NCBI GenBank assembly: GCA_020632695.1
Contig: JACKFB010000003.1
Location: forward strand, 321,061-385,060
Length of the DNA: 64,000 bases
Direction of reading: 5' to 3'
From: Deltaproteobacteria bacterium
Lineage (GTDB): Bacteria; Myxococcota_A; UBA9042; PHBI01; JACKFB01
Shown in pieces: positions 27,474 through 61,316 of the stretch; within the stretch, counting starts at the first letter, position 1, and every line of letters starts with the position of its first letter. The notes beneath the pieces were generated by a model. It had not been told where the DNA came from. It ran no database searches and saw only the letters and a program-made list of their open reading frames with translations. The translations under genes were made by a program, and so were the position numbers.

Positions 27474-27489
27474 TGCGCGGGGGCGGCCG

Positions 27490-31621: not shown

Positions 31622-31716
31622 TCTACCCGCAGGCGCCCCCGGCGCACACGGGACCTCGACACGGGCGGCCCGCGGTGCGCATCATCCGCGCGCCTGCCCG
31701 GGCGCCCGAGGAGACG

Positions 31717-32166
31717 ATGACCGACCGCTTGCGAACGCTCTACCGCGACCTGGTGCTCGACCACGGCCGCCGCCCGCGCCACCGGGCGACCATGGCCGGG
31801 GCGGATCGCGTGGGCGAGGGCCACAACCCGCTGTGCGGCGATCGGGTCCGGGTGATGCTGCGGCTGGGGCCCCAGGGCGTCGTCGCGGCGGCTCAGTTCA
31901 CCGGCGAGGGCTGCGCCATCTCGACCGCGTCCGCCTCGGTGCTGACCGAGCTGGTCAGCGGCCTCACGCTCGAGCAGGCGGGGGCGCTCGCCTCCCGCTT
32001 CGAGGCGGCGCTCTCCGGCGAGCCCGCGCCCGACCTCCCCGAGGCGCTGGAGGCACTGACCGGCGTGGTCGCCTGGCCGGCGAGGGTGCGCTGCGCGAGG
32101 CTTCCGTGGGTGGCGCTGGGCCAGGCCCTGTCGGACGAGTCGGAGGTCGCGACCTCCGAGCCGTGA
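31717..32166 (+). CDS. SufU/NifU-N-like Fe-S scaffold or sulfur-transfer protein
   Basis: Start at Met 15 of ORF 31675..32166. GHNPLCGDRV and GEGCAIS Cys motifs of the IscU/SufU fold. Confidence 0.7.
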   Translation: MTDRLRTLYRDLVLDHGRRPRHRATMAGADRVGEGHNPLCGDRVRVMLRLGPQGVVAAAQFTGEGCAISTASASVLTELVSGLTLEQAGALASRFEAALSGEPAPDLPEALEALTGVVAWPARVRCARLPWVALGQALSDESEVATSEP

Positions 32167-43167: not shown

Positions 43168-46100
43168 ATGACTTCCGAACGCCACCTGGAAGAGTCGTTC
43201 ATCGCCAAGCTCGTCAGCCTCAAGTACGAGTATTGTGAAGACATCGATGATCGGGACAGCCTCGAAACCAACTTCCGCCAGAAGTTCCAAGCGCTCAACC
43301 AGGTCAAGCTGACCGACGGCGAGTTCAAGCGACTCCTCGACGAGATCGTCACGCCGGACGTCTATGAAGCCGCGCGCGCCCTGCGAAATCGGGAGGCGTT
43401 CATCCGCGATGACGGCACCCCGCTCAACTACACGCTTGTCAACATCAAGGACTGGTGCAAGAACAGCTTCCAGGTCATCAACCAGCCGAGCATCAACACG
43501 GACAACAGCCGTCACCGCTACGATGTCCTGCTCCTGATCAATGGCGTCCCTGTGGTCCAGGTCGAGCTCAAGACGCTCGGAATCAGCCCCCGGCGAGCGA
43601 TGGAGCAGATCGTCGCGTACAAGAACGACCCCGGGAACGGCTACTCGAAGACGCTGCTCTGCTTCATCCAGCTCTTCATCGTCAGCAACCGCACGGACAC
43701 TTGGTACTTCGCGAACAACAACGCGCGGCATTTCGCCTTCGACGCCGACGAGCGCTTCCTTCCCATCTACCAGTTCGCCACCGACGACAACACGAAGGTC
43801 ACCCACCTCGATGACTTCGCCGAGGCCTTCCTGGCCAAGTGCACGCTCGGGCACATGATCAGCAAGTACATGGTTCTCATCGCCAGCGAGCAGAAGCTGA
43901 TGATGATGCGGCCGTATCAGATCTACGCCGTGAAGGCCATCGTCGACTCCATCGACCAGGACTGCGGCAACGGTTACATCTGGCATACGACCGGCTCCGG
44001 CAAGACGCTGACCTCCTTCAAGGCCTCGACGCTCCTCAAGACCAACGAGCGCATCCACAAGTGTCTCTTCGTCGTGGACCGCAAGGACCTCGACCGCCAG
44101 ACCCGCGAGGAGTTCAACCGCTTCCAAGAGGGTTGCGTCGAAGAAAACACCAACACCGCGACGCTCGTCGACCGCCTTCTGTCCGATGACTACGCCGACA
44201 AGGTCATCGTCACCACCATCCAGAAGCTCGGCCTGGCCCTCGACCAGAACAGCAAGCAGAGCAAGCAGCACGTCGCTCGGGGCCGGAACACCTACAAGCA
44301 GCGGCTGGAGTCCCTGCGCGACAAGCGCATGGTGTTCATCTTCGACGAGTGCCACCGCTCCCAGTTCGGCGAGAACCACAAGGCCATCAAGGAGTTCTTC
44401 CCCAACTCCCAGCTCTTCGGCTTCACCGGCACGCCGATCTTCAAGGACAACGCCACCGTGAAGCAGGTGGAAGGCGACAAGGCCACGCTGCGTACCACGC
44501 AGGACCTGTTCCAGAAGCAGCTCCACGCCTACACGATCACCCACGCCATCGAGGACCGCAACGTCCTCCGCTTCCACGTCGACTACTACAAGCCCAAGGA
44601 CGCCGCGGTCCCCCCGCCGGGCGAGACGTTGACGAAGAAGGCCGTCGCCCAGGCCATCCTCGACAAGCACGATGCGGCGACAGGAGCCCGGCGCTTCAAC
44701 GCGCTGCTCGCCACCGCTTCCATCAACGACGCCATCGAGTACCACGGCGTCTTCAAGAAGCTGCAAGCCGAGCGCCTGGCGGCAGACCCCGGCTTCGTGC
44801 CCCTGAAGATCGCAGCGGTGTTCTCCCCCCCGGCGGCGGGCAACAGGGACGTCCAGCAGCTCCAAGAGGACCTGCCCCAAGAGAAGGAGGACAACCGCCA
44901 GGATCCCGAGGGAAAGAAGGCCGCGCTCGAGGCCATCATCACCGACTACAACCAGCGGTACGGCACCAACCACGACATCAACAATTTCGACCTCTACTAC
45001 CAGGACGTCCAGCAGCGCATCAAGTACCAGCAGTTCCCCAACCGCGACCTGCCCCAGAAGGGCGCCGAGAAGATCGACATCACCATCGTGGTCGACATGC
45101 TGCTCACCGGCTTCGACGCCCGGTTCCTGAACACGCTCTACGTGGACAAGAATCTCAAGCACCACGGCCTGATCCAGGCCTTCTCGCGCACCAACCGTGT
45201 CCTCAACGCGACGAAGCCCTACGGCCACATCCTCGACTTCCGCCAGCAGCAGAAGAGCGTCGACGCCGCGATCACGCTCTTCTCCGGCGCACAGGCCGAC
45301 CGGGCCCGCGAGATCTGGCTGGTCGACAAGGCCCCCGTCGTCATCGAGAATCTCGAACAGGCCGTCGCCGACCTCGGCGCGTTCATGAAGTCCCAAGGCC
45401 TCGAAGCCAGACCAGAACAGGTGAACAACCTGAAGGGCGACGCCGCCCGAGCGCAGTTCATCAAGCGATTTCGGGAGGTCCAGCGCCTCCAGACGCAGCT
45501 CGACCAGTACACCGACCTCACCGAGGAGCAGCGGGAGCAGATCGAGCAGGCCCTTCCCAAAGACGATCTCCGTGCCTTCCGCGGCGTCTACCTCGAGACG
45601 GCCAAGCGCCTGAGGGAGCAGCAAGCCGTCGCGGGCACTGGCGAAGCGCCGGTCGACCCCGAGCTCGACCAGCTCGACTTCGAGTTCATCCTCTTCGCCT
45701 CCGCGGACATCGACTACGACTACATCATGAAGCTGATCGCGAAGTACTCGGGCCTGGACCCGGAGCGAAGCGAGAAGACCCGCCAGCAGCTCATCGGCAT
45801 GATCCAGTCCGACGCCAAGTTCCTGGACGAGCGCGAGTCGATCACCGAGTACGTCCGCTCGCTTCCGGTGGGCGAGGCGCTCGACGAGTCCGCCGTCCAC
45901 TCCGGGTACGAGAAGTTCAAGGCCGCGCGGCAGGCCAAGGAGCTCGAACGCCTCGCCGAGGCCCATGGCCTGACGAAGGAGTCCCTCTCGGCCTTCGTCG
46001 ACACCATCCTCCAGCGCATGGTGTTCGACGGCGAGCTGCTCACCGACCTGATGGCGCCCCTCGATCTGGGCTGGCGCGAACGCCGCGAGCGAGAGCTCGC

Positions 46101-46194
46101 CCTTATGACGCAGCTCGTCCCGCTCCTGAACAAGAGGGCCCACGGCCGGGAGATCTCAGGCCTGAATGCGTACGAGCATGGGGGAGGCCGGTGA
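43168..46194 (+). CDS. hsdR: type I restriction enzyme R subunit
   Basis: 1008 aa. DEAD/DEAH helicase motifs (TGSGKT, DECHRSQ), an N-terminal restriction domain and the C-terminal HsdR helical domain. GC markedly lower than flanking DNA. Confidence 0.95.
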   Translation: MTSERHLEESFIAKLVSLKYEYCEDIDDRDSLETNFRQKFQALNQVKLTDGEFKRLLDEIVTPDVYEAARALRNREAFIRDDGTPLNYTLVNIKDWCKNSFQVINQPSINTDNSRHRYDVLLLINGVPVVQVELKTLGISPRRAMEQIVAYKNDPGNGYSKTLLCFIQLFIVSNRTDTWYFANNNARHFAFDADERFLPIYQFATDDNTKVTHLDDFAEAFLAKCTLGHMISKYMVLIASEQKLMMMRPYQIYAVKAIVDSIDQDCGNGYIWHTTGSGKTLTSFKASTLLKTNERIHKCLFVVDRKDLDRQTREEFNRFQEGCVEENTNTATLVDRLLSDDYADKVIVTTIQKLGLALDQNSKQSKQHVARGRNTYKQRLESLRDKRMVFIFDECHRSQFGENHKAIKEFFPNSQLFGFTGTPIFKDNATVKQVEGDKATLRTTQDLFQKQLHAYTITHAIEDRNVLRFHVDYYKPKDAAVPPPGETLTKKAVAQAILDKHDAATGARRFNALLATASINDAIEYHGVFKKLQAERLAADPGFVPLKIAAVFSPPAAGNRDVQQLQEDLPQEKEDNRQDPEGKKAALEAIITDYNQRYGTNHDINNFDLYYQDVQQRIKYQQFPNRDLPQKGAEKIDITIVVDMLLTGFDARFLNTLYVDKNLKHHGLIQAFSRTNRVLNATKPYGHILDFRQQQKSVDAAITLFSGAQADRAREIWLVDKAPVVIENLEQAVADLGAFMKSQGLEARPEQVNNLKGDAARAQFIKRFREVQRLQTQLDQYTDLTEEQREQIEQALPKDDLRAFRGVYLETAKRLREQQAVAGTGEAPVDPELDQLDFEFILFASADIDYDYIMKLIAKYSGLDPERSEKTRQQLIGMIQSDAKFLDERESITEYVRSLPVGEALDESAVHSGYEKFKAARQAKELERLAEAHGLTKESLSAFVDTILQRMVFDGELLTDLMAPLDLGWRERRERELALMTQLVPLLNKRAHGREISGLNAYEHGGGR

Positions 46195-47453
46195 TGGCCG
46201 GATCGCCCCCTTCAACCGTACCAAAGCTTCGGTTCCCAGAGTTCCGGGAAGCGCCCGGGTGGGCACGCGATCAAATCGGCAATGTTGCAAGTATTACCAA
46301 AGGAAGGGGTGTCTCAAAGTCGGATGTGACGGAGGCGGGTGCAACTCCCTGCATCAGGTATGCAGAACTGTATACTTGCTATGGCGAGGTGATTCGTCAC
46401 GTGGTATCTCGCACGAACATCTCGCCCGATGAGTTGGTATTCAGCGAACCCGAGGATGTGATTGTGCCCGCGTCAGGAGAGACGCGAGCAGACATCGCGA
46501 GGGCTGCCTGCGTTGTCGACGGAGGCGTCGCACTAGGCAGTGATCTGAATGTCCTGCGGTCGCAGCTTAGCGGTCGGTTTTTCAGCTACGTGCTGAACAG
46601 TCCGCTTCGCCATACGATCGCACTACTCGCACAGGGCGATACGGTTGCTCACCTGTATCCCGCTCAGCTATCGCGTGTTTCGCTGGCTTACCCATCGCGG
46701 CGAGAGCAGCAGAAGATCGCCGACTGCCTCGGCTCGCTGGACGACCTGATTGCCGCCGAGGGCCGGAAGCTGGACACTCTGCGGCAGCACAAGCAAGGGC
46801 TGATGCAGGATCTCTTTCCTCGCATCGATGAGAGCCAGCCCAGAATGCGATTCCCTGAATATGCTCGTGCTCCTGCGTGGAAACCACGGAAGATCTCAGA
46901 TCTTCTCAAGAAGGCGTCCATCCAGGTCATCGTGGAGCCGGATACCAAGTATCAAGAAATCGGCGTGAGATCCCACGGAAATGGCGTGTTTCACAAGACG
47001 CCTGCGCTCGGGTCTCGTCTCGGTGCGAAGCGCGTCTTCGAGGTTGTCGAACAAGCCCTGGTCTTCAATACCGTCTTCGCCTGGGAACGCGCAGTCGCCA
47101 CGACTTCACGCGCGGAAGCAGGCATGATCGCTTCGCACCGATTCCCCATGTATCTCCCTAAGTTCGGGACGTGTGATGTTCGCTTCATGAAGTACGCATT
47201 CCTTACTCAGCGCGGTGCGCAGCTCCTGCACGTGGCATCCCCCGGGGGCGCGGGGCGGAACCGCACCCTCGGTCAAGCAGAACTCGGGGCGCTCGTGATG
47301 ACCGTGCCCAGTCTGGACGAGCAAGTCGCGATTGCGAGTATGATAGACGCAGCCTCGAATCTCATCGAGCTCCAAGCCGCCAATTGGGAACTGATAAAGC
47401 AGTATAAGGCCGGTCTTCTGCAACAGCTCTTCCCATCGCCCGGAGGCCACTGA
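46194..47453 (+). CDS. hsdS: type I restriction-modification specificity subunit
   Basis: 419 aa. Two target-recognition domains separated by conserved coiled regions. ATG overlaps the hsdR stop (TGATG). Confidence 0.85.
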   Translation: MAGSPPSTVPKLRFPEFREAPGWARDQIGNVASITKGRGVSKSDVTEAGATPCIRYAELYTCYGEVIRHVVSRTNISPDELVFSEPEDVIVPASGETRADIARAACVVDGGVALGSDLNVLRSQLSGRFFSYVLNSPLRHTIALLAQGDTVAHLYPAQLSRVSLAYPSRREQQKIADCLGSLDDLIAAEGRKLDTLRQHKQGLMQDLFPRIDESQPRMRFPEYARAPAWKPRKISDLLKKASIQVIVEPDTKYQEIGVRSHGNGVFHKTPALGSRLGAKRVFEVVEQALVFNTVFAWERAVATTSRAEAGMIASHRFPMYLPKFGTCDVRFMKYAFLTQRGAQLLHVASPGGAGRNRTLGQAELGALVMTVPSLDEQVAIASMIDAASNLIELQAANWELIKQYKAGLLQQLFPSPGGH

Positions 47454-47456
47454 ACG

Positions 47457-48635
47457 ATGCGGGACGCGCCAAAGATCCATCTGTACAGAAGCCTGACCAC
47501 GCTCGCAACCAGGCTGCGCAGTGATCTTAGAGACTTCCACAGCGTGCTCCTCTATGCCTATAATAGAACCGGGAAGACACGCCTTTCGATGGAGTTCAAG
47601 AAGCTAGGGAAGCGGAAAGGCAATGGCACCGCTGACACACTATACTTCAATGCATATACCGAGGACCTCTTCATCTGGGAGAATGACCTCGATTCCGACT
47701 GCGACCGCCATCTCCAACTCAATTCCAAGTCGGCGTTTCTGAAGTTACTCGCCGAGTTGGCCCTTGACCTGAGTATTGCTGAATATTTGTCGCGCTACGC
47801 CGATTTCGAATTTGACATCGACTACACCAGTTGGAAGGTGACGTTTCGGAAGGGCGATGAAGAACAGATCAAGATATCTCGAGGCGAGCAGAACATCTTC
47901 ATCTGGTGCATCTTCATGGCGATATGCGAGCAGGTTATCGCGGGACACTTGTCTTATCAATGGGTCAAGTATCTCTACATCGATGATCCCATTTCGTCGC
48001 TGGACGACAACAACGCTATCGCAGTTGCATGCGACCTCGCGGGCTTGCTTCGGAAGGCGGCCGCGAGGCGTGATATGGCGGGTAGTCCTGACCCGCTGCG
48101 AACGGTGATTTCCTCGCATCACGCGCTGTTTTTCAACGTGATGTGTAACGAGTTGAGCAGGAGACCCGAAGGACAGAACAAGGTAGATCACAAGCGATAC
48201 TTCTTGCAGCAGCCCACCGGCGAACGTGTCTACACGCTTCGCGCGACGGACGACACACCCTACTTCCACCACATCGCCACGCTTGCCGAATTGGACCGTT
48301 GCGCGAAGCGGACACGCTCTATACGTACCACTTCAATGCGCTGCGAAGTGTGCTGGAGAAGACGGCCAGCTTCTTCGGCCAGGAACTTCTCCGCCTGCAT
48401 TTTGCTTGCATAGATGAAGACGGGGGTTGAAGGATGAGGCTCTGTCTGCAATCTCGCACTGAACCTGCTGAGTCACGGCAGCTACGCCATCATGAGCCCA
48501 GTCGAGATGGTAGAGGACAACAAGAAGCTGTTTCGGCAAATCCTGGACGATTTCTTGAGCAAGTTTGAGTTCTTGCTTCCAGAGATCCTTCCATTGCCCA
48601 AGGCGAAGCGCCGATGCGAAATGACTGAACACTGA
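47457..48635 (+). pseudogene. ABC-type (AAA_15/AAA_21-like) ATPase gene, interrupted
   Basis: Walker A AYNRTGKT, ABC signature ISRGEQ, Walker B/D-loop LYIDDPISSLD, H-loop SSHH. After about 48.28 kb the plausible reading continues in the +1 frame and returns to the original frame at about 48.44 kb (ending ...KAKRRCEMTEH*). Confidence 0.5.
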
Positions 48636-50234
48636 CCAGCAGAAGCTCGGCAAGACGCTCTGGGCCATCGCCGATCAGCTCCGCGGGGCGATGAACGCGG
48701 ACGACTTTCGCGACTACATGCTCGCGTTCCTGTTCCTCCGCTACCTGTCGGACAACTACGAGCAGGCCGCGAAGAAGGAACTCGGGCGTGACTACCCGGA
48801 TCCAAAGGCGATCGGCAACGGCGGGCGGTCCGCTCTGTCCGTGTGGTACGGACAGAACCGGACGATGTGACGGCATTCGAGAAGCAGATGCGCCTCAAGG
48901 CGCACTATGTGATCCTCCCCAAGTACCTGTGGGCCAGCGTTTCCCACATGGCCCGCACTCAGGACGAGCAGCTTCTGAACACCCTCCAGGCCGGCTTCAA
49001 GTACATCGAGAACGAGTCGTTCGAGAGCACCTTCTCGGGCCTGTTCTCGGAGATCAACCTCGGCTCGGACAAGCTCGGCAAGAACTACTCCGCCCGCAAT
49101 ACGAAGCTCTGCACGATCATCGGCGAGATCGCGAAGGGGCTCGCCGATTTCTCCACCGACAGCGACACGCTGGGAGACGCCTACGAGTACCTGATCGGCC
49201 AGTTCGCCGCAGGCTCGGGCAAGAAGGCGGGCGAGTTCTACACGCCGCAGCGGATCTCGGACATCCTCTCCGGCATCGTCACGCTCGACAGCCAGGAGCC
49301 GGGGGCAGGGACGCGCGAGCGGCTCGGCAGCGTGATGGACTTCGCCTGCGGGTCGGGCTCGTTGCTGCTGAACGTCCGAAAGCGCATGGGGGCGCACGGC
49401 ATCGGGAGGATCTTCGGGCAGGAGAAGAACATCACGACCTACAATCTGGCGCGGATGAACATGCTGCTACATGGGGTGAAGGACTCAGAGTTCGAGATCT
49501 ACCATGGCGACACGCTGACCAACGACTGGGACATGCTCCGCGAGACCAACCCGGCGAAGAAGCCGTACTTCGACGCCGTGGTCGCCAATCCGCCGTTCAG
49601 CTACCGCTGGGACCCGAGTGACGCCTCGGCCGAGGATGTGCGCTTCAAGAACTACGGGCTGGCGCCGAAGTCTGCCGCGGACTTCGCGTTCTTGCTCCAC
49701 GGCTTCCACTACCTCAAAGACGACGGCGTGATGGCCATCATCCTGCCGCATGGGGTGCTGTTCCGCGGCGGTGCTGAGGCGAAGATACGCGCGAAGCTGC
49801 TCGAAGATGGCAACATCGACACCATCATCGGGCTGCCCGCGAACCTGTTCTACTCGACGGGGATCCCGGTCTGCATCCTGGTGCTCAAGAAGTGCAAGAA
49901 GCCCGATGACGTGTTGTTCATCAACGCCGTCGAGCATTTCGACAAGGGCAAGCGGCAGAACGTCCTCAGCGACGAGCACATCGCGAAGATCGTCAGAACC
50001 TACAAGCATCGCAAGGAGGAGACGCGGTACTCGCGGCGGGTGGAGATGGCCGAGATCCAGGCGAACGAGTACAACCTGAACATCTCGCGCTATGTGAGCA
50101 CGGCCAAGCCGGAGGTCGAGATCGACTTGGCGGCGACGCAAGAGGAGCTGGTGCGGATCGAGGACGAGATCCGCAAGGCGAAGGATCTGCACAACGGCTT
50201 CCTCGAGCAGCTCGGTCTGAAACCTCTGCCCTGA
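48621..50234 (+). pseudogene. hsdM: type I R-M N6-adenine DNA methyltransferase subunit, frameshifted
   Basis: ATG 48621 gives MTEH then a stop. The HsdM N-domain (DQQKLGKTLWAIADQLRG...FLFLRYLSD) is read in the +1 frame 48625..48870. The catalytic body with the ANPPF motif is in the original frame from 48843. Confidence 0.75.
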
Positions 50235-52563: not shown

Positions 52564-52586
52564 GGCGACGCTGTTACCACCGCGCG

Positions 52587-55500
52587 TCAGCCGAGTCGAT
52601 GAAGGCGGCGCCCCGCCGCCAGCTCGTGTCGCTCGCGTCGCCGCGTCCAGGCCCAGCCGAGGAGCAGCGCGGCGAGCCACGCGCCGCCGTCGCCCGTGGT
52701 GCCGGTGCAGCCTCCGCCTCCGCTGCCTCCGTCGCCTCCGCCGCCCGCGCGGTCGGTCTCCGGCTCGGCGCCGACGTCGTCCGGCGACGCGTCGCCGCTG
52801 GCGTCGGGGGGCGCGCCCGCGTCTTCCCGGTCCGCCACGTCGTCGAGCCCCGCGTCGTCCGGCGGCAGTGCCACGCAGAGGCCGGCCTCCGATCGTGTGC
52901 CGGCGGGGCAGCAACCGTCCACGTCAGCGCAGGCGCCGGGCTCGCACTCGGTCCGCTGCAGCTCCTCGCCGCAGCCGCTGGTCTCCACCCACACGTCGCC
53001 GGCGCAGGCTGCGGTCGACGGCAGCTCGCCGCAGTTGCAGGTCCCCGAGTCGGGCAGGCAGCGCCGTGCGCCGACAGCCCCGGACTTGCAGGAGTAGCCG
53101 CTCGGGCAGGCGTCGGCCAGGCCGCAGGGGACCACGCAGAACGCGCCCGTCGGCATCTGGAGGCAGGTGCCGACGAGGCACTCGGTCGTGTCGCACGGAG
53201 CGCAGGCGACTGGCTCGCAGACGCCGTCCGCGCAGGCGGAGCCGAGCTCGCAGGTCAGGGGCGTGCCTGCGCACTCTCCGGCGGAGCAGGTGTCGCCTTG
53301 GGTGCACGGGTCGCCGTCGTCGCAGCTCGCGGTGTTGTCCTGGTGGACGCAGCCGGAGACCGGGTCGCAGGCGTCGGTGGTGCAGGGGTCGCCGTCGTCG
53401 CAGGCGACCGACGTGTGGGTGCAGCCGGAGGCGGGGTCGCAGGCGTCGGCGGTGCAGGCGTCGCCGTCGTCGCAGGCGATGGCGGCGTGGGTGCAGCCGG
53501 AGGCGGGGTCGCAGGCGTCGGTGGTGCAGGCGTCGGCGTCGTCGCAGGCGATGGCGGTGTGGGTGCAGCCGGAGGCGGGGTCGCAGGCGTCGAAGGTGCA
53601 GGCGTCGGCGTCGCTGCAGGGGACCGGGGCGTGGGTGCAGCCGGTCGCCGGGGCGCAGGCGTCGGTGGTGCAGGGGTTGGCGTCGTCACAAGCGACGCTG
53701 GTGTGGGTACACCCGGACGCCGGGGTGCAGGCATCCGAGGTGCAGGCGTTGGTGTCGTCGCAGTCGCGCGCCGCGTGCGTGCAGCCGAGCTTCGGGTCGC
53801 AGGCGTCGGTGGTGCAGGGGTCCGAGTCGTCGCAGGTGACGGCCGAGTGCCCGCAGCCGGTCTTGGGGTCGCAGGTGTCCTGGGTGCAGGCGTCGCCGTC
53901 GTTGCAGGTGGTGGCGGAGTGCACGCAGCCCGAGGCCGGGTCGCAGGCGTCGGTCGTGCATACGTTCGCGTCGTCGCAGTTCACGGGCGCGCTCACGCAG
54001 CCGCTCTTCGGCTTGCAGGTGTTCGCGGTGCAGGCGTCGGCGTCGTCGCAGTCGACGGCGGCGTGCGCGCAGCCGGAGGCCGGGTCGCAGGTGTCCGCGG
54101 TGCAGGCGTTGGCGTCGTCGCAGCTCAGGGGCACGGACACGCACCCGGCGACGGGGTCGCAGGTGTCTGCGGTGCAGGCGTTCCCGTCATCGCAGCCGAT
54201 GGCCGTGTGGACGCACCCGGTCGCGTGGTCGCAGGTGTCGACGGTGCACACGTTGGCGTCGTCGCAGTCGAGGGACGGGTGGGCGCAGCCGGTGGCGGGG
54301 TCGCAGGTGTCTGCGGTGCAGGCGTCCGCGTCGTCGCAGTCCACCAGATCGGTGACGCATCCCGCCGCGGGGTCACAGGTCTCGGTGGTGCAGACGTCCA
54401 GATCCTCGCAGGACACGAGCTGGTGGGTGCAGCCCTCATCCGCGTCGCAGGCGTCGGTGGTGCAGGCGTCACCGTCGTCGCAGTCCACGGGGTCGTGGGT
54501 GCAGCCGGTGGCGGGGTCGCAGCCGTCGGCGGTGCAGGCGTCGCCGTCGTCGCACGGGTTGGGCGTGAAGAGGCAGGCGCCCGAGCTGTCGCAGCCATCA
54601 TCGGTGCACGGGTCACCGTCATCGCAGGCCTGGGCCACGTGGGTGCAGCCCGTCGCCGGGTCGCAGGCGTCGACGGTGCACGCGAGCGCGTCGTCGCAGT
54701 CGACCGCCGTGGTGGCGCAGCCGGTGAGCGGGTCGCAGATGTCGGTGGTGCAAGCGTTCGCGTCGTCGCAGTCGACCAGGTCGGTGACACAGCCCAGCGC
54801 CGGGTCGCAGGTGTCGGTGGTGCAGGCGTCGTCGTCGTCGCAGTCGACGCTGGCGTGCCCGCACCCGGTGGCGGAGTCGCAGGAGTCGACGGTGCAGGCG
54901 TTCGCGTCGTCACAGTCGACGGCGGCGTGCCCGCAGCCGGCGAGCGGGTCGCAGGTGTCGGTGGTGCAGGCGTCGCCGTCGTCGCAGCCGACGCTGGCGT
55001 GGCCACAGCCGGTGGCGGGGTCACAGGTGTCGTTGGTGCAGGCGTCCGCGTCGTCGCAGTCGACGCTGGTGTGCTCGCAGCCGGCGAGCGGGTCGCAGGT
55101 GTCGTTGGTGCAGGCGTCGTCGTCGTCGCAGCCGACGCTGGCGTGGCCACAGCCGGTGGCGGAGTCGCAAGTGTCGTTGGTGCAGGCGTCCGCGTCGTCG
55201 CAGTCGATGGCGGCGTGCCCGCAGCCGGTGGCGGAGTCGCAAGTGTCGTTGGTGCAGGCGTCCGCGTCGTCGCAGTCGACGGCGGCGTGCTCGCAGCCGG
55301 CGGCGGAGTCGCAAGTGTCGTCGGTGCAGGCGTCCGCGTCGTCGCAGTCGACCAGGTCGGTGACGCACCCTGCCGCCGGGTTGCAAGTCTCGTTGGTGCA
55401 GGCGTCCGCGTCGTCGCAGTCGATGGCGGCGTGCTCGCAGCCGGTGGCGGAGTTGCAGGAGTCGGCGGTGCAGGCGTCCGCGTCGTCGCAGTCGACGTTC

Positions 55501-57785
55501 GCGTGCTCGCAGCCGGTCACCGGGTCGCAGGTGTCGACGGTGCAGGCATCGCCGTCGTCGCAGGAGTGGGGCGCGAAGGTGCAGTCGCCCGAGCTGTCGC
55601 AGCCGTCGTCGGTGCACGGGTTGCCATCGTCGCACTGCTGCGCCACATGGGTGCAGCCAGTCCCCGGGTCGCACGCGTCGACCGTGCACGGGAGCGCATC
55701 GTCGCAGTCGATCCCGGCGTGCGCGCAGCCGGTGCCGGGCTCGCAGGTGTCTGCGGTGCAGGCGTCGGCGTCGTCGCAGTCGACCGCGGCGTTGGCGCAG
55801 CCTGTGGCGGGGTCGCAGGTGTCCGCGGTGCAGGCGTCGGCGTCGTCGCAGTCGACGGCGGTGTTCACGCAGCCCGACGCCGGGTTGCAGCTGTCGGTGG
55901 TGCAGGCGTCGGCGTCGTCGCAGTCGGTCCCCGCGTGGGCGCAGCCGGTGGTCGAGTCGCAGGTGTCTGCGGTGCATGCGTCCGCGTCGTCACAGTCGAT
56001 GGTGGCGTTGACGCATCCCGACGCCGGATCGCAGCTGTCGGTCGTGCATGCGTCGGCGTCGTCGCAGTCGACGGTGCGGCGTGGCCGCAGCCGGTGGTCG
56101 AGTCGCAGGTGTCGTTGGTGCAGGCGTCCGCGTCGTCGCAGGTCGCAGGTGTCGTTGGTGCAGGCGTCGGCGTCGTCGCAGTCGACGGCGGCGTGGGCGC
56201 AGCCGGTGGTCGAGTCGCAGGTGTCGTTGGTGCAGGCGTCCGCGTCGTCGCAGTCGACGGCGGCGTTGACGCATCCCGACGCCGGATCGCAGCTGTCGGT
56301 CGTGCATGCGTCGGCGTCGTCGCAGTCGACGGTGGCGTGGCCGCAGCCGGTGGTCGAGTCGCAGGTGTCCGCGGTACAGGCGTCCGCGTCGTCGCACTCG
56401 ACGGCATCGTTCACGCATCCCGAAGCGGAGTCGCAGCTGTCGGAGGTGCAGGCGTCGGCGTCATCACAGTCGACCGCGGTGTGGCCGCATCCGGTGGTCG
56501 AGTCGCAGCTATCGGTGGTGCAGGCGTCAGCGTCGTCGCAGTCGACGGCATCGTTGACGCATCCCGAAGCCGGGTCGCAGCTGTCGGAGGTGCAGGCGTC
56601 GACGTCATCACAGTCGACGGCGGCGTGGCCGCATCCGGTCGTCGGGTCGCAGCTATCGGTGGTGCAGGCGTCGGCGTCGTCGCAGTCGACGGCGGCGTGC
56701 TCGCAGCCGGTGGTCGGGTCGCAGCTATCGGTGGTGCAAGCGTCCGCGTCGTCGCAGTCGACGGCGGCGTGCTCGCAGCCGGTCACCGGGTCGCAGGTGT
56801 CGACGGTGCAAGCATCGCCGTCGTCGCAGGAGTGAGGCTCGAAAGCGCAATCGCCCGAGCTGTCGCAGCCGTCGTCGGTACACGGGTTGCCGTCGTCGCA
56901 CTGCTGAGCCACATGGGTGCAGCCCGTCCCCGGATCGCACGCGTCGACCGTGCACGGGAGCGCATCGTCGCAGTCGATCCCGGCGTGCGCGCACCCGGTG
57001 ACGGGATCGCAGGTGTCTGCGGTGCAAGCGTCCGAGTCGTCGCAGTCGACCGCGGCGTTGGCGCAGCCTGTGGCGGGGTCGCAGGTGTCCGCGGTGCAGG
57101 CGTCGGCGTCGTCACAGTCGACGGCGGCGTTCACGCATCCCGACGCCGGGTTGCAACTGTCGGTGGTGCAGGCGTCGGCGTCGTCGCAGCTCACCGCGGC
57201 GTTGGCGCAGCCCGTGGTGGGGTCGCAGGTGTCTGCGGTGCAGGCGTCGGCGTCGTCACAGTCGAGGGCGGCGTGCTCGCATCCCGAGGCAGAGTCGCAG
57301 CCATCGGTGGTGCAGGCGTCGGCGTCGTCGCAGTCGACCGCGGCGTGCCCGCAGCCGGTTGTCGGGTCGCAGGTGTCGGTGGTGCAGGCGTTGGCGTCGC
57401 CGCAGTCGATCGCGGCGTTGGCGCAGCCGGTAGTGGAGTCGCAGGTGTCTGCGGTGCAGGCATCGGCGTCGTCGCAATCGACGCGCGCGTGGGCGCAGCC
57501 GGTGTGGGGTCGCAGGTGTCTGTGGTGCAGGCGTCGGCGTCGTCGCAGTCGACTGCCGTGTTGACGCACCCCGAGGCGGGGTCGCAGCTGTCGGTGGTGC
57601 AGGCGTCTGCGTCGTCGCAGCTCACCGCCTCGTTGGCGCAGCCTGTGGTGGGGTCGCAGGTGTCTGCGGTGCAGGCGTCGGCGTCGTCGCAGTCGACTGC
57701 CGTGTTGACGCATCCCGATGCCGCGTTGCAGCTGTCGGTGGTGCATGCGTCGGCGTCGTCGCAATCGACGCTCGCGTGGGCGCAC
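52587..57785 (-). CDS. C-terminal portion of giant secreted protein: tandem 24-aa Cys-rich repeats plus MYXO-CTERM-like sorting signal
   Basis: In-frame [19 protein letters not shown] units throughout. Ends with a Cys/Gly-rich stretch, a hydrophobic helix and an Arg cluster ([33 protein letters not shown]). Joined to the upstream portion by a frameshift near 57.49 kb. Confidence 0.75.
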
Positions 57786-58860
57786 CCGGTGCTCGAGTCG
57801 CAGCTGTCGGTGGTGCAGGCGTCCGCGTCGTCACAGTCGAGGGCGGTGTTGACGCACCCCGAGGCGGGGTCGCAGCTGTCGGTGGTGCAGGCGTCGGCGT
57901 CGTCGCAGCTCACCGCGTCGTTGACGCACCCCGAGGCGGGGTCGCAGCTGTCGGTGGTGCAGGCGTCCGCGTCGTCGCAGTCGAGGGCGTCGTTGACGCA
58001 CCCCGAGGCGGGGTCGCAGCTGTCGGTGGTGCAGGCGTCCGCGTCGTCGCAGCTCACCGCGTCGTTGACGCACCCCGAGGCGGGGTCGCAGCTGTCGGTG
58101 GTGCATGCGTCTGCGTCGTCGCAGCTCACGGCGTCGTTGGCGCAGCCTGTGGTGGGGTCGCAGGTGTCTGCGGTGCAGGCGTCGGCGTCGTCGCAGTCGA
58201 CTGCCGTGTTGACGCATCCCGACGCCGCGTTGCAGCTGTCGGTGGTGCATGCGTCTGCGTCGTCGCAATCGACGCTCGCGTGGGCGCACCCGGTGCTCGA
58301 GTCGCAGCTGTCGGTGGTGCAGGCGTCTGCGTCGTCGCAGCTCACCGCGGCGTTGACGCACCCGGAGGCGGGGTCGCAGCTGTCGGTGGTGCAGGCGTCG
58401 GCGTCGTCGCAGCTCACGCCGGTGTGGATGCAGCCCGCGGCCGCGTTGCAGGTGTCCGCGGTGCACGCGTCCGCGTCGTCGCAGTCGACCGCCGCGGTGA
58501 CGCACCCCGTCGCCGGCTCGCAGGTGTCCGCGGTGCACGCGTCCGCGTCGTCGCAGTCGACCGCGGCGTTGACGCAGCCGGTCGCAGGGTCGCAGCTGTC
58601 GACGGTGCAGGCGTCCGCGTCGTCGCAGCTCACGCCGGTGTGGACGCAGCCCACGGCCGGGCTGCATGTGTCATCGGTGCACGCGTTGGCGTCGTCGCAG
58701 TCCACGGCCGCTCGCACGCACCCGCTGCCCGAGTCGCAGACATCGCTGGTGCACGCGTCGTCGTCGTCGCAGTCGACCGGCACCACCACGCACGTGCCCG
58801 CGGCTCCGCAGCTCGTCTCGGTGCAGGCGTCTCCGTCCTCGCACGCCGCGTCGCTCAGCA
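53285..58860 (-). repeat. array of about 72-bp coding tandem repeats (roughly 75-80 units, estimated from length not counted)
   Basis: Unit CDD(A/G)DACT.D.CDP..GC.H..V(D/S) with 4 Cys per 24 aa. Very high nucleotide-level similarity between units. Confidence 0.8.
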
Positions 58861-60901
58861 CGCAGCCCACACAGCACGGCGCCGACTCGCCCCCGTCGCA
58901 CTGCTCACCAGGCTCGACCGTCCCGTTCCCACAGGTCGCCACGATCGCCGCCACCGCCGACGGCGCGATGATCAGCCCGGCGCCCCACACATCGCTCGGC
59001 CCTCCCGCGCCGGTGGTCGTCGTGAGCGCCGTCCGCACCTCCGCCGGAGACAGCGCCGGGTTCACCTGCAGCATCAACGCCACGACCCCCGCGGCCGCCG
59101 GCGCGGCCATGCTGGTGCCGCGCAACGCCGCGTACTCCGCGGGACCGCTGCCATCGAGATACAGGCCGTCGCTGTCGACGATGTAGTACGTCTCCAACGG
59201 GGCCAACGGGTTTCGCGCCGAGATCGTCGCCGCGCCGGGCGCCGCCAGCGTGGGCATGGCGGCGCCGTCGATCCGCGGGCCGTGACTGCTGAAGGTCGCC
59301 ATCTGCCCGTTGGCGTCCTCGGGGAAGCTCCACGACTGCCCGAAATAGTCCGTCCAGGACCGGGCGTGGACGAGCGCCCCGACCGAGATGGCGAGATCCG
59401 CAAGCGCCGGACTGGCGATCGTGTACCCCGCGTCCGCGCCGCCGAAGCTCGCCTCGAGCTCCCACGCGTAGAGATGAACCAACGCCGCAGGCCCCGCCGA
59501 GCCGTCGCGGGTGACCGTCAGCGTGTAGGTGCGCGTGGTCCCCGACGGGACGGCCGGGTGCAGCTCGTAGGTGCGCGCGCGGGTTCCTCGCACGCTCGTG
59601 TCGTCGTAGATGGACGCGAACGACTCTCCCACCGTGAGGCCCCCGGCGACCGCGACCGCCTCCGCGGAGCCGCCCGCGTCGGGGCGCCACACCAGGTTCA
59701 CCCGGATGGACGCGCCCGCGTCCAAGGTGCCGAACCGATTGTCGACCGTCAGCGCGAAGACCCGCGACTCGCTCGGGTTCAACGAGGCCGACGCGTGCCG
59801 GGCGGCGTCTGCGTCGTTGCCCGCCGCGATGACGACGGTCACCCCCGCCGCGACCGCCGCATCCACCGCCTGGCTCTTGGCGTCGCTGCCGTCCGGGAAG
59901 ACGGCCTGCCCGCCGTAGCTCATCGAGAACACCCCGCAGCCCACCTGGGAGGACCGGGTGACCGCCTTCACGATGTCGGCGTCGCTGGACGTCGCGTCGA
60001 CGTCGTTGCCGATCTTGAAGAAGCGCAGTGACGCCCCCGGCGCCACCCCCGCGTACTTGCCGTACGAGCGCGCCCCGGTGCCGACCACCGTGCCGGTCAC
60101 GTGGGTGCCGTGGGTCGAGACCGTGCTCGAGACCGCCGTGCTCCAGTCGCTCGGGTCCAGGCCGTCGGTCACGTCCCGGGCCTCGACGAGGTTCGGGAAG
60201 TCGCCATGGAACACGTAGAGCTCGGAGTCCGCGACACACACCGACACCCCCGCCCCGTTGGCCGCCGGAACGCCGTTCCCGCTCCACACCGACGGCACGG
60301 CCATCGCCCCCCGCGCGTTCTGGTTCGTCGGGCGGTTGACCCCCTCGGCCGATCGCACGGCCACCACGCCCGGATATCGCGCCAGCGCCGCCAGCGACGC
60401 GTAGGGGACCTCCATCAGGTGGAAGCCGTAGGGATGATGGCCGGGCACCGCGGGCACGAAGATGCTGTGGCTGACGCGGATCCCCTGCGCTTCGAGCTCG
60501 GCCAGCTCCTCATCGGAGAGGCGCTCGCGCACGTACACCGCGCAGCTCTCGCGGTCGGCGTGGGACGGATCCAGGCCCGCGCGACGCAGGGTCCGCTCCC
60601 GCGACCCTTCGGGCATCCCCGCCACCTCGTCGCGCAGCCGCCGGTGGTAGTCGATCATCCCGCCGATGAGCGCGGCGCTCTCCCTGGGCGGCGACGGGTC
60701 CGCTGGCGACGCGGCGGGCGCCGGCTGCAGCGAAGGCAGCGCGCTCGCATGAAGGTCCGTATCCTGACCCGCGGCGGCGGCCGGCGGGTGCGCGCCGTCG
60801 AGCTCGCCGGGTCGCTCGCCCCCCGAGCAGGCGGCGAGCAGCAGTCCCGACAACAAGCTCCGCACGAAACGGGCCGCCAAAGGCCTGACGCAAGATGGCA
60901 T
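57191..60901 (-). CDS. N-terminal portion of giant secreted protein: lipoprotein signal plus S8 subtilisin-like peptidase plus start of Cys-rich repeat array
   Basis: Lipobox LLAAC. S8 His motif HGTHVTGTVVG, Asn motif AAGNDAD, Ser motif GTSMAAPAAAGVVAL. Repeats begin near 58.86 kb. The last about 100 codons of this ORF are an out-of-frame read-through. Confidence 0.8.
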   Translation of the reverse strand: MPSCVRPLAARFVRSLLSGLLLAACSGGERPGELDGAHPPAAAAGQDTDLHASALPSLQPAPAASPADPSPPRESAALIGGMIDYHRRLRDEVAGMPEGSRERTLRRAGLDPSHADRESCAVYVRERLSDEELAELEAQGIRVSHSIFVPAVPGHHPYGFHLMEVPYASLAALARYPGVVAVRSAEGVNRPTNQNARGAMAVPSVWSGNGVPAANGAGVSVCVADSELYVFHGDFPNLVEARDVTDGLDPSDWSTAVSSTVSTHGTHVTGTVVGTGARSYGKYAGVAPGASLRFFKIGNDVDATSSDADIVKAVTRSSQVGCGVFSMSYGGQAVFPDGSDAKSQAVDAAVAAGVTVVIAAGNDADAARHASASLNPSESRVFALTVDNRFGTLDAGASIRVNLVWRPDAGGSAEAVAVAGGLTVGESFASIYDDTSVRGTRARTYELHPAVPSGTTRTYTLTVTRDGSAGPAALVHLYAWELEASFGGADAGYTIASPALADLAISVGALVHARSWTDYFGQSWSFPEDANGQMATFSSHGPRIDGAAMPTLAAPGAATISARNPLAPLETYYIVDSDGLYLDGSGPAEYAALRGTSMAAPAAAGVVALMLQVNPALSPAEVRTALTTTTGAGGPSDVWGAGLIIAPSAVAAIVATCGNGTVEPGEQCDGGESAPCCVGCVLSDAACEDGDACTETSCGAAGTCVVVPVDCDDDDACTSDVCDSGSGCVRAAVDCDDANACTDDTCSPAVGCVHTGVSCDDADACTVDSCDPATGCVNAAVDCDDADACTADTCEPATGCVTAAVDCDDADACTADTCNAAAGCIHTGVSCDDADACTTDSCDPASGCVNAAVSCDDADACTTDSCDSSTGCAHASVDCDDADACTTDSCNAASGCVNTAVDCDDADACTADTCDPTTGCANDAVSCDDADACTTDSCDPASGCVNDAVSCDDADACTTDSCDPASGCVNDALDCDDADACTTDSCDPASGCVNDAVSCDDADACTTDSCDPASGCVNTALDCDDADACTTDSCDSSTGCAHASVDCDDADACTTDSCNAASGCVNTAVDCDDADACTADTCDPTTGCANEAVSCDDADACTTDSCDPASGCVNTAVDCDDADACTTDTCDPTPAAPTRASIATTPMPAPQTPATPLPAAPTPRSTAATPTPAPPTPATRQPAAGTPRSTATTPTPAPPMAATLPRDASTPPSTVTTPTPAPQTPATPPRAAPTPR

Positions 60902-61316
60902 CGAGTCTCCATGTCGTCCGACCGGGCGACCCACGGGAGCGAAGTTTTCCGGGACAGGACCTTCTAGCCATGCGCCCGCACGCGGTCAATGAGCAGTCCA
61001 CTCTCGCTCGGAACCCGCTCCGAGCCGGAGGCGACCCCGCCGCTGGGCGCTCCCCGCCGCCGAGCAGGGCCCGGCCGCCACCGGAAAGCTGCCCGGGCGA
61101 CCGAGTGGCTGGACCTGCGCGGAATCAGACCGCATAGTGTCGCCCACGATCGCTTCAGCCGCGGAGCGTGCGAGGCCTCTCCGGAGACTACCGGCCGCGG
61201 TCCGGCAGCGGTCCCCGACACCCATGCCAGAATCAGCCAGTCCCGCCGCGGCGGGACGCGTCAGCGGGCAGCCCATCGCGGCCGCGCGAGGGCGCCGCAC
61301 GACCAGAGGAGCCTCC

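Follow-up and report, generated by a model that had tools for sequence, protein, structure and literature searches.

Layout of the locus and its protease head

The window analysed is a 64,000-nt stretch whose source, judging from its sequence, is an uncultured Myxococcota lineage. A locus on its minus strand (52587..60934) has coordinates that fit a GTG at 60934 and a TGA stop at 52587-52589, with an ATG at 60901 as the likelier start. The first-pass annotation described one ~8.3-kb gene here; as assembled, however, the frame is broken: the region's length of 8348 nt leaves a remainder on division by 3, and two overlapping ORFs span it, ORF A (57191..60934) and ORF B (52587..57785). The ATG of ygiQ lies 23 nt downstream of the end of the protease-stalk gene, and this neighbouring YgiQ is 85% identical to proteins of Myxococcota MAGs. 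The features of the locus are as follows.

60827..60901, minus: start codon, signal peptide, and lipobox up to Cys25 (ATG 60899-60901, alternative GTG 60932-60934; from the translation and the lipobox pattern)
60344..60682, minus: N-terminal prodomain, with two helices, a beta-alpha-beta-beta-alpha-beta unit (60350..60553), and a low-confidence linker (secondary structure of the AF2 head model)
58928..60322, minus: S8 subtilase catalytic domain (PF00082; residue-level alignment to 3afg/9ues; Foldseek to CspB 4i0w)
60227-60229, 60110-60112, 59816-59818, and 59111-59113, minus: S8 catalytic residues Asp, His, oxyanion Asn, and Ser, respectively
59441..59797, minus: all-beta insert of ~120 aa, lying between the Asn and the Ser region of the S8 domain (AF2 strands E296-E414)
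58844..58933, minus: Cys-rich linker CGNGTVEPGEQCDGG..., a motif common to many Myxococcota and Binatia proteins
57548..58843, minus: Dicty_CTDC units 1-18, 72 nt each, in the protease frame (Pfam PF00526, E=8e-64 on 9 units)
57477..57547, minus: unit 19, 71 nt, with a 1-nt deletion (~57503; unit-by-unit comparison)
57191..57476, minus: out-of-frame 3' tail of ORF A, Pro/Ala/Thr-rich, with its stop at 57191 (the same DNA as units 20-23 in the repeat frame)
56181..57476, minus: Dicty_CTDC units 20-37, in frame with ORF B (unit comparison)
56067..56180, minus: 114 nt of anomalous sequence, made up of a partial unit of 40 nt and then a 74-nt unit with a 2-nt insertion (unit comparison)
53403..56066, minus: Dicty_CTDC units 39-75, all four Cys codons intact in each
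53253..53402, minus: degenerate units 76-77
52854..53252, minus: non-repeat Cys-rich C-terminal domain of ~133 aa (translation)
52722..52853, minus: acidic, Gly-rich, low-complexity linker, presumably disordered (translation)
52629..52721, minus: MYXO-CTERM-like tag, comprising GGGGC, 8 residues, a hydrophobic helix, and RRRER (TIGR03382/TIGR03901 scores)
52587..52628, minus: 13-residue tail past the Arg cluster and TGA stop (translation)

The N-terminal signal is predicted to be of the lipoprotein type, and its lipobox, SLLSGLLLAAC, matches a PROSITE-style pattern; numbered from the ATG, the lipobox Cys is Cys25. The domain behind it matched Pfam Peptidase_S8 (PF00082) with E=6e-41, and its Asp (VCVADSE), His (HGTHV), Asn (AAGN), and Ser (GTSMAAP) aligned with the catalytic residues of Tk-SP (3afg). 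The lipobox and the complete S8 catalytic set proposed in the first-pass annotation were thus both borne out. The AF2 model of the head (pLDDT 83.5) showed a prodomain topology and the beta insert; the prodomain region was conserved in the homologs P0001-P0011, and its fold matches included the pro-subtilases 3afg, 3whi, and CspB. For the head as a whole, the closest folds were the clostridial CspB (4i0w; Foldseek E=8e-23, TM 0.57/0.74), CspC (6mw4), and CspA (9pr9), together with pro-Tk-SP, and the Csp subtilases were the best structural relatives of the insert-bearing head. Csp subtilases have a comparable insert, and their prodomain remains bound after cleavage. Their sequence identity with the head is, however, only ~17%, and they are spore germination proteases of Firmicutes without a stalk or anchor. 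NCBIfam gave a weak CspBA match for the head, and its sequence relatives (P0001-P0011, 41-46% identity) bear T9SS or other C-terminal modules. By sequence and model, the head is predicted to be a Csp-like S8 serine protease whose catalytic triad is complete and whose domain is interrupted by a beta insert.

Repeat array and C-terminal tag

When the frame is repaired, the array consists of 75 contiguous units of exactly 24 aa and 2 degenerate units, and the protein contains 340 Cys in 2768 aa; tandem repeat analysis (TRF) reported a 72-nt period across 53343..58779. The unit, left unnamed in the first-pass annotation, is Pfam PF00526 (Dicty_CTDC), a family extremely widespread in bacteria, with >10,000 cluster representatives in prokaryotes, fusions to many unrelated heads, and giant members reaching 7241 aa. 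None of the NCBIfam repeat models, including TIGR04201, matched the repeats at E<=0.1. In the 24-residue consensus, C1, D3, C7, T8, C12, and C18 are invariant, and Asp is conserved at positions 2, 3, 5, 10, 13, and 24. An AF2 model of six units (pLDDT 95.4) showed one hairpin per unit, and each unit is accordingly modelled as a 24-aa beta-hairpin with four Cys. The array makes up 65% of the protein and is extremely acidic (net charge -416), and its uninterrupted run of 75 exact-length units compares with at most 21 strict units in 311 relatives.

The high nucleotide identity ascribed to the repeats at first proved overstated: the mean pairwise identity between units was 74%, the best blocks reached ~93% over 300-420 nt, and exact repeats extended to 89 nt at most, with none >=100 nt. 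Block paralogs occurred at offsets of 7 and 17 units in an ordered divergence gradient, with dS of 0.1-0.2 and dN/dS of 0.05-0.29. These values indicate that the array is under selection and not very recent, and they lend little weight to the recent expansion or concerted evolution suggested previously.

Beyond the array, Pfam and NCBIfam searches of the ~133-aa Cys-rich domain found no family except PF00526 at its start, and its similarity to P0195 was not significant. The tag scored 16.3-22.5 bits against TIGR03382 (cutoff 15.85) and 14.6-20.2 bits against TIGR03901 (cutoff 20), both depending on context, and it reached the latter cutoff only when excised. In its natural context it failed TIGR03901, which the control tails passed; this is half of what the first-pass annotation had said would tell against a MYXO-CTERM end. 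The Cys, hydrophobic helix, and Arg cluster of that end are present, but its scores are borderline for the MYXO-CTERM models, which were the only sorting-signal models to match. Its hydrophobic stretch is short and is followed by 13 residues past the Arg cluster; P0202 likewise has a short tail there, yet passes TIGR03901. We regard the element as a borderline candidate for a divergent MYXO-CTERM-type tripartite tag. With both a lipobox and a C-terminal lipid tag, the protein would be tethered by each of its ends unless its prodomain is released. The window ORFs scanned included no identified myxosortase, T2SS, or Dsb gene. With this qualification for the tag, the earlier domain reading was upheld, including its ~75-80 tandem four-Cys units and its several hundred Cys.

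The frame break and its possible explanations

Unit 19 reads CCCACACCGGC where its sister units read CCCACCACCGGC, with one base missing, and inserting one C there yields a single 2783-codon ORF. As assembled, ORF A exits the repeat frame within unit 19 and stops after ~107 out-of-frame Pro/Ala/Thr-rich codons, so that its product would be a protease with 18 units and without the anchor, and ORF B has neither its own start codon nor a signal peptide. At the second anomaly (56067..56180, covered by a period-112 TRF row at 56029..56253), the +40 and +2 nt jointly restore the frame, leaving 25 scrambled, Arg-rich codons without Cys. No two units of the array are more alike than 37 and 38, which flank this stretch (98.6%), and the array contains all three anomalies. 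The deletion in unit 19 may be an assembly or polishing error in the array or, with about the same likelihood, a real frameshift of very recent date, and the full-length surface protein exists only in the former case. On balance, we think that the locus encodes, or encoded until very recently, one modular cell-surface protein of ~2760 aa and 272 kDa.

A smaller but appreciable probability attaches to a genuine, very recent pseudogene or truncation, in which the deletion is real and the locus yields no more than a protease with lipobox, S8 domain, 18 repeats, and a meaningless Pro/Ala/Thr tail. This product would have no C-terminal anchor and would be secreted after prodomain cleavage, and the downstream 4.9 kb would be untranslated. 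The deletion is present in the sequence as given, and it lies outside long homopolymers, where long-read errors concentrate. The remaining window also looks base-accurate: among the ~40 other ORFs scanned, no other split gene was seen, and those with family matches had full-length domain coverage, indicating that indel errors are not general. Moreover, a lineage-specific gene without a conserved ortholog is of a kind often gained and lost, and the second indel event marks the locus as mutationally active. On the other hand, no decay is seen in the array past the break: all 300 of its 300 Cys codons are intact, including 224 of 224 in the 56 later units, and the 4.9 kb downstream contains no stop. 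The dN/dS between blocks on either side of the break is well below 1, and the +40/+2 disturbance is exactly compensated, as expected if the downstream frame matters, although chance alone would achieve this in 1 of 3 cases. Furthermore, polishing errors concentrate in repeat arrays.

It is rather doubtful that the array itself is the functional part, as in a matrix or adhesin protein like Dictyostelium EcmA/EcmB and the spore-coat proteins, crosslinked by disulfides or Ca2+ into an extracellular matrix or spore coat, with the S8 domain serving self-maturation or matrix remodelling rather than being displayed at a distance. The repeats do share their Pfam family with the Dictyostelium 24-aa-repeat proteins (PMC4406040; PMC3068167), and the dominance of the array, its extreme acidity, its invariant Asp, and the purifying selection on the units themselves are consistent with such a role, as is the occurrence of PF00526 arrays on many unrelated heads, which suggests a generic extracellular module. 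However, varied enzymatic or binding heads with membrane tags fit a spacer role at least equally, no binding or crosslinking motif was identified besides Cys and Asp, and the tag predicts tethering to the cell rather than release into a matrix. The literature searched holds no experimental data on bacterial PF00526 proteins.

Misassembly of near-identical 72-nt units, which would make the copy number, the indels, or both artefactual and the true gene shorter or longer, appears improbable. Both disturbed stretches do fall inside the array, the second between its two most similar units, and the public relatives retrieved reach no more than 21 strict units in a row. Many of these relatives come from metagenome assemblies that are probably biased against long repeat arrays, so the 75 units may be due either to biology or to assembly methods that differ. 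However, the units are differentiated well enough to give a unique path through the array, resolvable by reads of moderate length; the ordered gradient with block paralogs at fixed offsets is unlike random collapse or expansion; and all units apart from the two anomalies are exactly 72 nt long. That the sequence as it is gives functional products through a programmed -1 ribosomal frameshift, or as two genes, can be considered highly improbable: around the break, both frame 0 and frame 2 stay open over 638 nt, so that a shift would fuse both parts, but the overlap contains neither an X_XXY_YYZ slippery heptamer nor a homopolymer >=5 nt, at the break itself or elsewhere, the break is exactly one missing base in an otherwise canonical unit, and the in-frame part of ORF B begins mid-repeat without a signal peptide and is therefore not exportable.

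Known relatives and proposed function of the stalk

A surface protease on a Cys-rich stalk was initially thought unusual, but the layout is known from TraA (PMC3325183), from P0158, and from the NCBI myxosortase-dependent hydrolase families. TraA (MXAN_4924) of Myxococcus xanthus, from the same phylum as the present source, has a PA14 head, Cys-rich tandem repeats proposed as a rigid stalk, and a MYXO-CTERM tag of Cys, TM helix, and Arg (PMC3325183); myxosortase processes this tag, and export is through the T2SS (PMC3325183, PMC11980579). It differs from the protein described here in its PA14 lectin head rather than an S8 protease, in its type I rather than lipoprotein-type signal, and in its TIGR03901 tag, for which the tag here is borderline. 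Its repeats are TIGR04201, which its authors found to resemble Pfam00526, and number nine, five of them tandem, in the legend of its figure S6 (PMC3325183), compared with ~75 PF00526-matching units here.

Closer in composition are P0158 (758 aa), with S8, PF00526 repeats, and MYXO-CTERM, and P0202, a giant of 4747 aa with PF00526 repeats and MYXO-CTERM. The S8 domain of P0158 is, however, of another subfamily, with the Ser region alone aligning (40% over 68 aa), and its ~20 repeats are of two unit types in alternation; a long run of strict periodicity is absent from both proteins, and their tags pass TIGR03901 at 28-30 bits, unlike the present one. With the NCBI-curated M36 metallopeptidase (NF038112) and phytase-like (NF045638) families, proteins combining a hydrolase or other head with Dicty_CTDC-type repeats and MYXO-CTERM form an established class of anchored hydrolases.

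The founding members of PF00526, Dictyostelium EcmA/EcmB and spore-coat proteins, are likewise secreted and consist mostly of highly similar 24-aa Cys-rich repeats (PMC4406040; spore-coat PMC3068167), but they are eukaryotic extracellular-matrix proteins with neither an enzyme head nor a membrane tag. The sole significant solved-structure match of the repeat model was the Gal/GalNAc lectin heavy chain (HgL) from Entamoeba histolytica (9gjf and related; E=9e-5, prob 1.0), which is described as having a region rich in Cys and an elongated arm that disulphide bonds between domains make rigid (PMC12948311). The TM-score was only 0.27 and the identity 16-18%, and this eukaryotic adhesin has irregular pseudo-domains rather than a periodic array.

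No orthologs were found in 5.8 billion proteins, GTDB representative genomes, and JGI metagenomes; the linker motif CGNGTVEPGEQCDGG was the sole part matched by the genome and metagenome scans, and the two closest relatives lack the protease-stalk gene beside ygiQ. All parts are known building blocks, the stalk is unusual in its length and regularity, and the gene is an extreme, lineage-specific form of a known architecture.

Taking TraA and the model published for MYXO-CTERM proteins as a guide (PMC3325183, PMC11980579), we infer that the full-length protein would be exported by Sec and form its disulfides in the periplasm, with the C-terminal tag retaining it in the inner membrane until its Cys is lipidated. 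A myxosortase-type CPBP protease would then cut off the tag helix, a type II secretion system would carry the protein to the cell surface, and autoprocessing of the prodomain may release the protease from its N-terminal lipid. The active protease would then be borne on the end of a stalk that is predicted to be long, stiff, strongly acidic, and stapled by disulfides, that may bind Ca2+, and that, at a rough estimate, may measure tens to >100 nm, the disulfide connectivity likewise being a matter of prediction. If this mechanism is true, the stalk would carry the protease out past the layer of slime or polysaccharide, within possible reach of prey or substrates.

Reading frame of the giant coding region

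The minus-strand region 52587..60934 starts with GTG at 60934 or, more plausibly, with ATG at 60901, and stops with TGA at 52587–52589. The first-pass annotation described it as an about 8.3-kb giant gene; it is indeed a gene-sized coding region, but its frame is broken as assembled and it is not a single uninterrupted gene, which that annotation had missed. The length of the region, 8348 nt, is not a multiple of three, and the ORF list contains two overlapping ORFs in different frames, with the following translated content:

57191..60934, minus strand: ORF A, 1247 aa; signal, protease and 18 repeats, then an out-of-frame Pro/Ala/Thr-rich tail
52587..57785, minus strand: ORF B, 1732 aa; an out-of-frame start, then repeats up to the end

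The motif positions in each frame placed the break between gene positions 3387 and 3458. Within the array of four-Cys repeats (one unit being 24 aa, or 72 nt), unit 19 has 71 nt instead of 72 and reads CCCACACCGGC, whereas its sister units read CCCACCACCGGC or similar; the missing base is a C at approximately 57503 (the form with this C is CCCACCACCGG), and a single ORF is obtained when one base is inserted. A second anomaly, also seen as a period-112 row in the TRF output, lies at 56067..56180, where a 40-nt partial unit precedes a unit of 74 nt, two bases too long. The two changes sum to +42 nt and thereby restore the frame, after a stretch of 25 scrambled codons that contain no Cys. A compensated +40/+2 pair of this kind is as expected under selection on the downstream frame, and by chance compensation is expected in 1 in 3 cases.

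Judging from the nucleotide sequence, an assembly artefact and a real, very recent mutation are roughly equally likely explanations of the frameshift in unit 19. All three indels lie inside the array, other family-matching ORFs of the window have full-length domain coverage, and consensus and polishing errors concentrate in repeat arrays, as would fit an artefact; so would the undecayed downstream sequence, in which the later units keep 224/224 Cys codons and no stop codon occurs. The otherwise clean window, the location of the deletion outside any long homopolymer, the lineage-specific nature of the gene, and the second, structurally complex indel event in the same array point instead to a real mutation. 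When approximately 40 other ORFs in the window were scanned for split domains as a measure of general assembly quality, none was split. Programmed frameshifting is unsupported because there is no slippery heptamer around the break, and two separate genes are rejected because ORF B lacks both a signal peptide and an in-frame start.

Two antisense ORFs, at 52599..59186 (plus strand, 2195 aa) and 53167..56835 (plus strand, 1222 aa), span the array and could mislead gene callers. Their GC3 is as high as that of the sense strand (0.94), and the GC-rich periodic sequence produces them as a by-product.

Protease head, repeat array, and C-terminal tag

The modules follow one another as a lipobox, an S8 protease head, the Cys-rich repeat array, and a MYXO-CTERM-like tag. 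The lipobox, SLLSGLLLAAC with Cys25 counted from the ATG and Arg at positions 6, 11, and 14, conformed to the pattern [LVI][ASTVI][GAS]C in a PROSITE-style pattern match alone, in agreement with the lipoprotein signal proposed earlier. The complete S8 catalytic set was confirmed by the match to Peptidase_S8 (PF00082; 141.1 bits against a cutoff of 21.8, E=6e-41) and by an alignment to solved subtilases, in which D236, H275, N373, and S608 (numbered from the GTG) aligned with the catalytic positions of 3afg/9ues and subtilisin BPN'. These residues lie in the motifs VCVADSE (Asp), HGTHV (His), AAGN (oxyanion Asn), and GTSMAAP (Ser), and all four are invariant in a 29-sequence family alignment (28 homologs). 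An AlphaFold2 model of residues 85–697 (pLDDT 83.5) showed a predicted prodomain of beta-alpha-beta-beta-alpha-beta topology, a weakly modeled linker, the catalytic core, and, inside the S8 domain between its Asn and Ser regions, an all-beta insert of approximately 120 aa; its best structural relatives were the clostridial Csp subtilases and pro-Tk-SP.

The tandem 24-aa four-Cys array claimed in the first-pass annotation was recovered, after repair, as 75 contiguous exact units and two degenerate ones. The spacing C-x5-C-x4-C-x5-C-x6, with a 24-residue period, fitted 75/75 units with 300/300 Cys present, and the repaired protein contains 340 Cys in total. The Pfam check that had been suggested assigned the unit to a named family, PF00526 (Dicty_CTDC, described as a repeat of the slime mold Dictyostelium), with E=8e-64 and 211.4 bits against a cutoff of 27 when nine units were submitted (nine stretches, profile positions 1–21/24), and the homologs retrieved with the array carry precomputed PF00526. 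An NCBIfam scan of nine units returned no family at E<=0.1, TIGR04201 (the TraA repeat) included. C1, D3, C7, T8, C12, and C18 are invariant within the unit and Asp dominates at positions 2, 5, 10, 13, and 24; the array alone thus contains 405 Asp, and its net charge is about -416. In a six-unit model, for which the array's own windows served as the alignment, one beta-hairpin per unit was predicted (pLDDT 95.4). A sequence search of the repeat against the PDB gave nothing significant; by fold, the only solved structure that significantly matched the model was the heavy chain (HgL) of the Gal/GalNAc lectin from Entamoeba histolytica, a match known at chain level. The paper on the HgL structure reports a region rich in Cys and an elongated arm that interdomain disulfides make rigid (PMC12948311). 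A variant unit pair recurs three times (units 27–28, 44–45, and 58–59, at intervals of 17 and 14 units) and may be a hinge, a specialised site, or simply a marker of block duplication.

The first-pass annotation had also proposed recent expansion or ongoing concerted evolution of the array. Pairwise identity between units averages 74%, the best blocks (at offsets of 7 and 17 units) are approximately 93% identical over 300–420 nt, and the longest exact repeat in the array is 89 nt. Third codon positions are the most diverged (identity 0.69), followed by first (0.74) and second (0.79) positions; block paralogs gave dS of 0.10–0.22 and dN/dS of 0.05–0.29, and dN/dS pooled over 203 unit pairs was 0.29. 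These values indicate that the central array grew by block duplication, not very recently, and was then maintained as protein by purifying selection. Ongoing concerted evolution is not required to explain them. The most diverged part is the C-terminal third (units 55–75).

The C-terminus has the tripartite layout defined for MYXO-CTERM (PMC3325183, PMC11980579), namely a signature Cys, a transmembrane hydrophobic helix, and a cluster rich in Arg, here arranged as GGGGC, 8 residues, the helix with the Arg cluster, and then 13 residues. It is atypical in its short hydrophobic stretch and in the 13 residues after the Arg cluster (6 in P0202, a repeat relative that still passes). Although the layout proposed earlier held, the HMM scores were borderline and dependent on context. 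TIGR03901.2 (cutoff 20 bits) did not match in the 330-aa or 69-aa contexts; excised tags including the Cys scored 14.6 and 16.3 bits, and the helix and Arg fragment without the Cys signature scored 20.2 bits. TIGR03382.1 (cutoff 15.85) gave 16.6 (last 330 aa), 16.3, and 22.5 bits (helix and Arg fragment alone) in three contexts, 7.9 bits in a fourth, and none in two others. No MYXO-CTERM model matched the last 69 aa of the giant protein, while the corresponding control tails of P0158 (an S8-repeat relative) and P0202 scored 29.8 and 27.7 bits on TIGR03901. The tag is therefore best described as MYXO-CTERM-like and divergent, with borderline HMM support. Because Myxococcota lineages differ in the myxosortase that they use (MrtX, MrtC, or MrtP; bioRxiv 10.1101/2023.06.07.544157), divergence of the tag is no surprise in a lineage with poor sampling. 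A C-terminal Cys-rich domain shared with another retrieved protein, P0195, looked plausible by eye and was not significant by BLASTP (E=0.04).

A GlyGly-CTERM signal was considered on two grounds, a "GG" ahead of the helix and a rhomboid gene at a distance of 13 kb:

37917..39485, minus strand: rhomboid-family protein, 522 aa, with a long N-terminal extension (TIGR03902, 53 bits; cutoff 84)

Rhombosortase TIGR03902 was the best NCBIfam match of this protein, slightly above GlpG, at a score below its cutoff; other sorting-signal models, including GlyGly-CTERM TIGR03501, did not match the tag in any context, and the GlyGly-CTERM/rhombosortase assignment was rejected. On its sequence the rhomboid protein may be a lineage-specific sorting protease, and no link between it and the tag of the giant gene was found.

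Relatives and genomic surroundings

The repeat is common. Of 1.84 billion cluster representatives scanned, 10,058 matched at E<=1e-3 and, at the stricter E<=1e-30, 1767; the longest protein had 7241 aa, and 4220 of 8000 scored candidates matched the C-terminal query. Named sources included Myxococcales, Deltaproteobacteria, CPR phyla, Phycisphaerae, and amoebozoans, and the modules fused to the repeats included T9SS tails, FGE-sulfatase, DNRLRE, VWA, and S8. For example, P0158 combines S8, the repeats, and MYXO-CTERM; its S8 domain belongs to a different subfamily, and S8-repeat fusions therefore arose more than once. P0202 is a 4747-aa repeat protein with MYXO-CTERM, and P0166 is a 5357-aa lipoprotein among the repeat relatives. 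TraA has the same architecture (a head, a Cys-rich stalk, and MYXO-CTERM), and its repeats have been proposed to form a rigid stalk and already compared with Pfam00526 (PMC3325183).

What distinguishes the present array is its regularity: the longest uninterrupted exact 24-aa run is 75 units against 21 among 311 retrieved relatives (77 against 44 with a loose unit definition), a contrast that is partly technical, since metagenome assemblies, the source of many relatives, probably underrepresent long repeat arrays. Moreover, no ortholog of the S8 head was found among 5.8 billion proteins (best identity 46%, none with PF00526), and searches of GTDB representative genomes and JGI metagenome contigs returned no ortholog, their matches being a short CGNG..GEQCD motif or distant S8 domains. 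The giant gene belongs to a known class of modular Myxococcota surface proteins, as an extreme and orphan variant. The earlier interpretation was broadly right, resting on a real but incompletely described observation, and its claim of novelty was overstated.

The downstream gene encodes a YgiQ-type radical SAM protein, the closest relatives of which (85% identical) come from MAGs named "Myxococcota bacterium", and this neighbor supports placement in Myxococcota at the phylum level. The ygiQ ATG lies 23 nt after the stop codon of the giant gene on the same strand (52566..52589); the gap leaves little room for a terminator or promoter, and both genes may be transcribed together. Upstream and divergently oriented are genes for a TPR protein and an RlmG-like methyltransferase. 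The two nearest ygiQ loci (85% identity) lack the giant gene. On the contig of the closest relative (JGI metagenome 3300056626, L021:10339-15240), ygiQ is followed by a convergent gene for a 1633-aa Cys-rich lipoprotein with scattered Dicty_CTDC-like units. This weak PF00526 neighbor was rejected as a counterpart: it is an unrelated Cys-rich lipoprotein with no protease, periodic array, or MYXO-CTERM, and the gene beside it is non-homologous. The ygiQ locus seems to be one where Cys-rich surface proteins turn over.

Elsewhere, the window (GC 72–75%) contains the following features:

17960..19232, plus strand: Xre-family antitoxin and RES-domain toxin pair
22874..24343, minus strand: lectin-like protein combining four mannan-binding MVL repeats with a ricin-B beta-trefoil domain
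25177..32166: Suf-type Fe-S assembly cluster (SufB, SufD, NifU-like, and a SufS-like class-V aminotransferase at 28830..30089)
43168..50234: Type I restriction-modification island, GC 57–68% against 72–75% elsewhere (dip at 43–50 kb)
43168..46194, plus strand: HsdR of the island
47457..48413, plus strand: AAA_13-like protein of the island
48843..50234, plus strand: HsdM N6-methylase of the island

The Xre/RES pair was checked because its overlapping ORFs resembled a split gene at 17960/18510, and it proved to be a normal two-gene toxin-antitoxin module. Two largely unannotated same-frame ORFs (19250..22873) precede the lectin-like gene, and a sigma-54 activator and a ScdA/hemerythrin protein lie near the Suf cluster. 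No specificity subunit was identified in the Type I island outside 46.2–47.4 kb. Among the ORFs scanned in the window, none was identified as a CPBP protease (PF02517), T2SS, or Dsb gene.

Proposed surface display and its implications

If it behaves like TraA and follows the published sorting model, the protein would be exported by Sec, after which its disulfides would form in the periplasm. The tag helix would retain it in the inner membrane until the signature Cys is lipidated, a myxosortase cleaves, and T2SS-dependent delivery to the surface follows. Autoprocessing of the predicted prodomain would uncouple the mature enzyme from the N-terminal lipid, leaving the protease displayed on a long, stiff, polyanionic stalk. 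A back-of-envelope calculation puts the stalk length at roughly 70–190 nm, according to the way in which the hairpins pack, and we hypothesize that the conserved Asp residues bind Ca2+. The main functional rival to this tethered protease is that the array itself serves as a matrix or adhesive element, as in Dictyostelium EcmA/EcmB, with the protease as an accessory (PMC4406040).

In its fullest form, namely that the missing base is an assembly error and that a record periodic array holds a predicted active subtilase far outside the envelope as an acidic rod, the proposal is unlikely, but it would have several consequences. Among the retrieved relatives, no strictly periodic Dicty_CTDC array would be longer: this one is 3.6 times the longest run in the 311, and its 75 disulfide-stapled hairpins would form a rod of perhaps 100 nm, perhaps stiffened by Ca2+. 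Such a long-reach tethered protease could serve contact-dependent predation or matrix penetration, and it could carry lipid at both ends, a topology undescribed for MYXO-CTERM proteins in the literature searched. The compensated +40/+2 pair would then be direct evidence of selection for the downstream anchor.

Current understanding is not overturned, as all modules and the overall architecture are known; the main interest lies in the record-length, perfectly periodic stalk, and its significance hinges on one base in unit 19. With giant repeat genes, a full-length product should be inferred only once the integrity of the frame has been checked. Public genomes and metagenomes contain very many proteins, a large share of bacterial origin, in which the so-called Dictyostelium repeat serves as an extracellular spacer for many different heads. 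If the gene is intact, it would provide an extreme and very regular natural disulfide-rich beta-hairpin stalk, which would help to work out the structure (still unsolved) and mechanics of the PF00526 repeat and would allow us to ask how, in predatory or social Myxococcota, the reach of surface enzymes is tuned by the length of their stalks.
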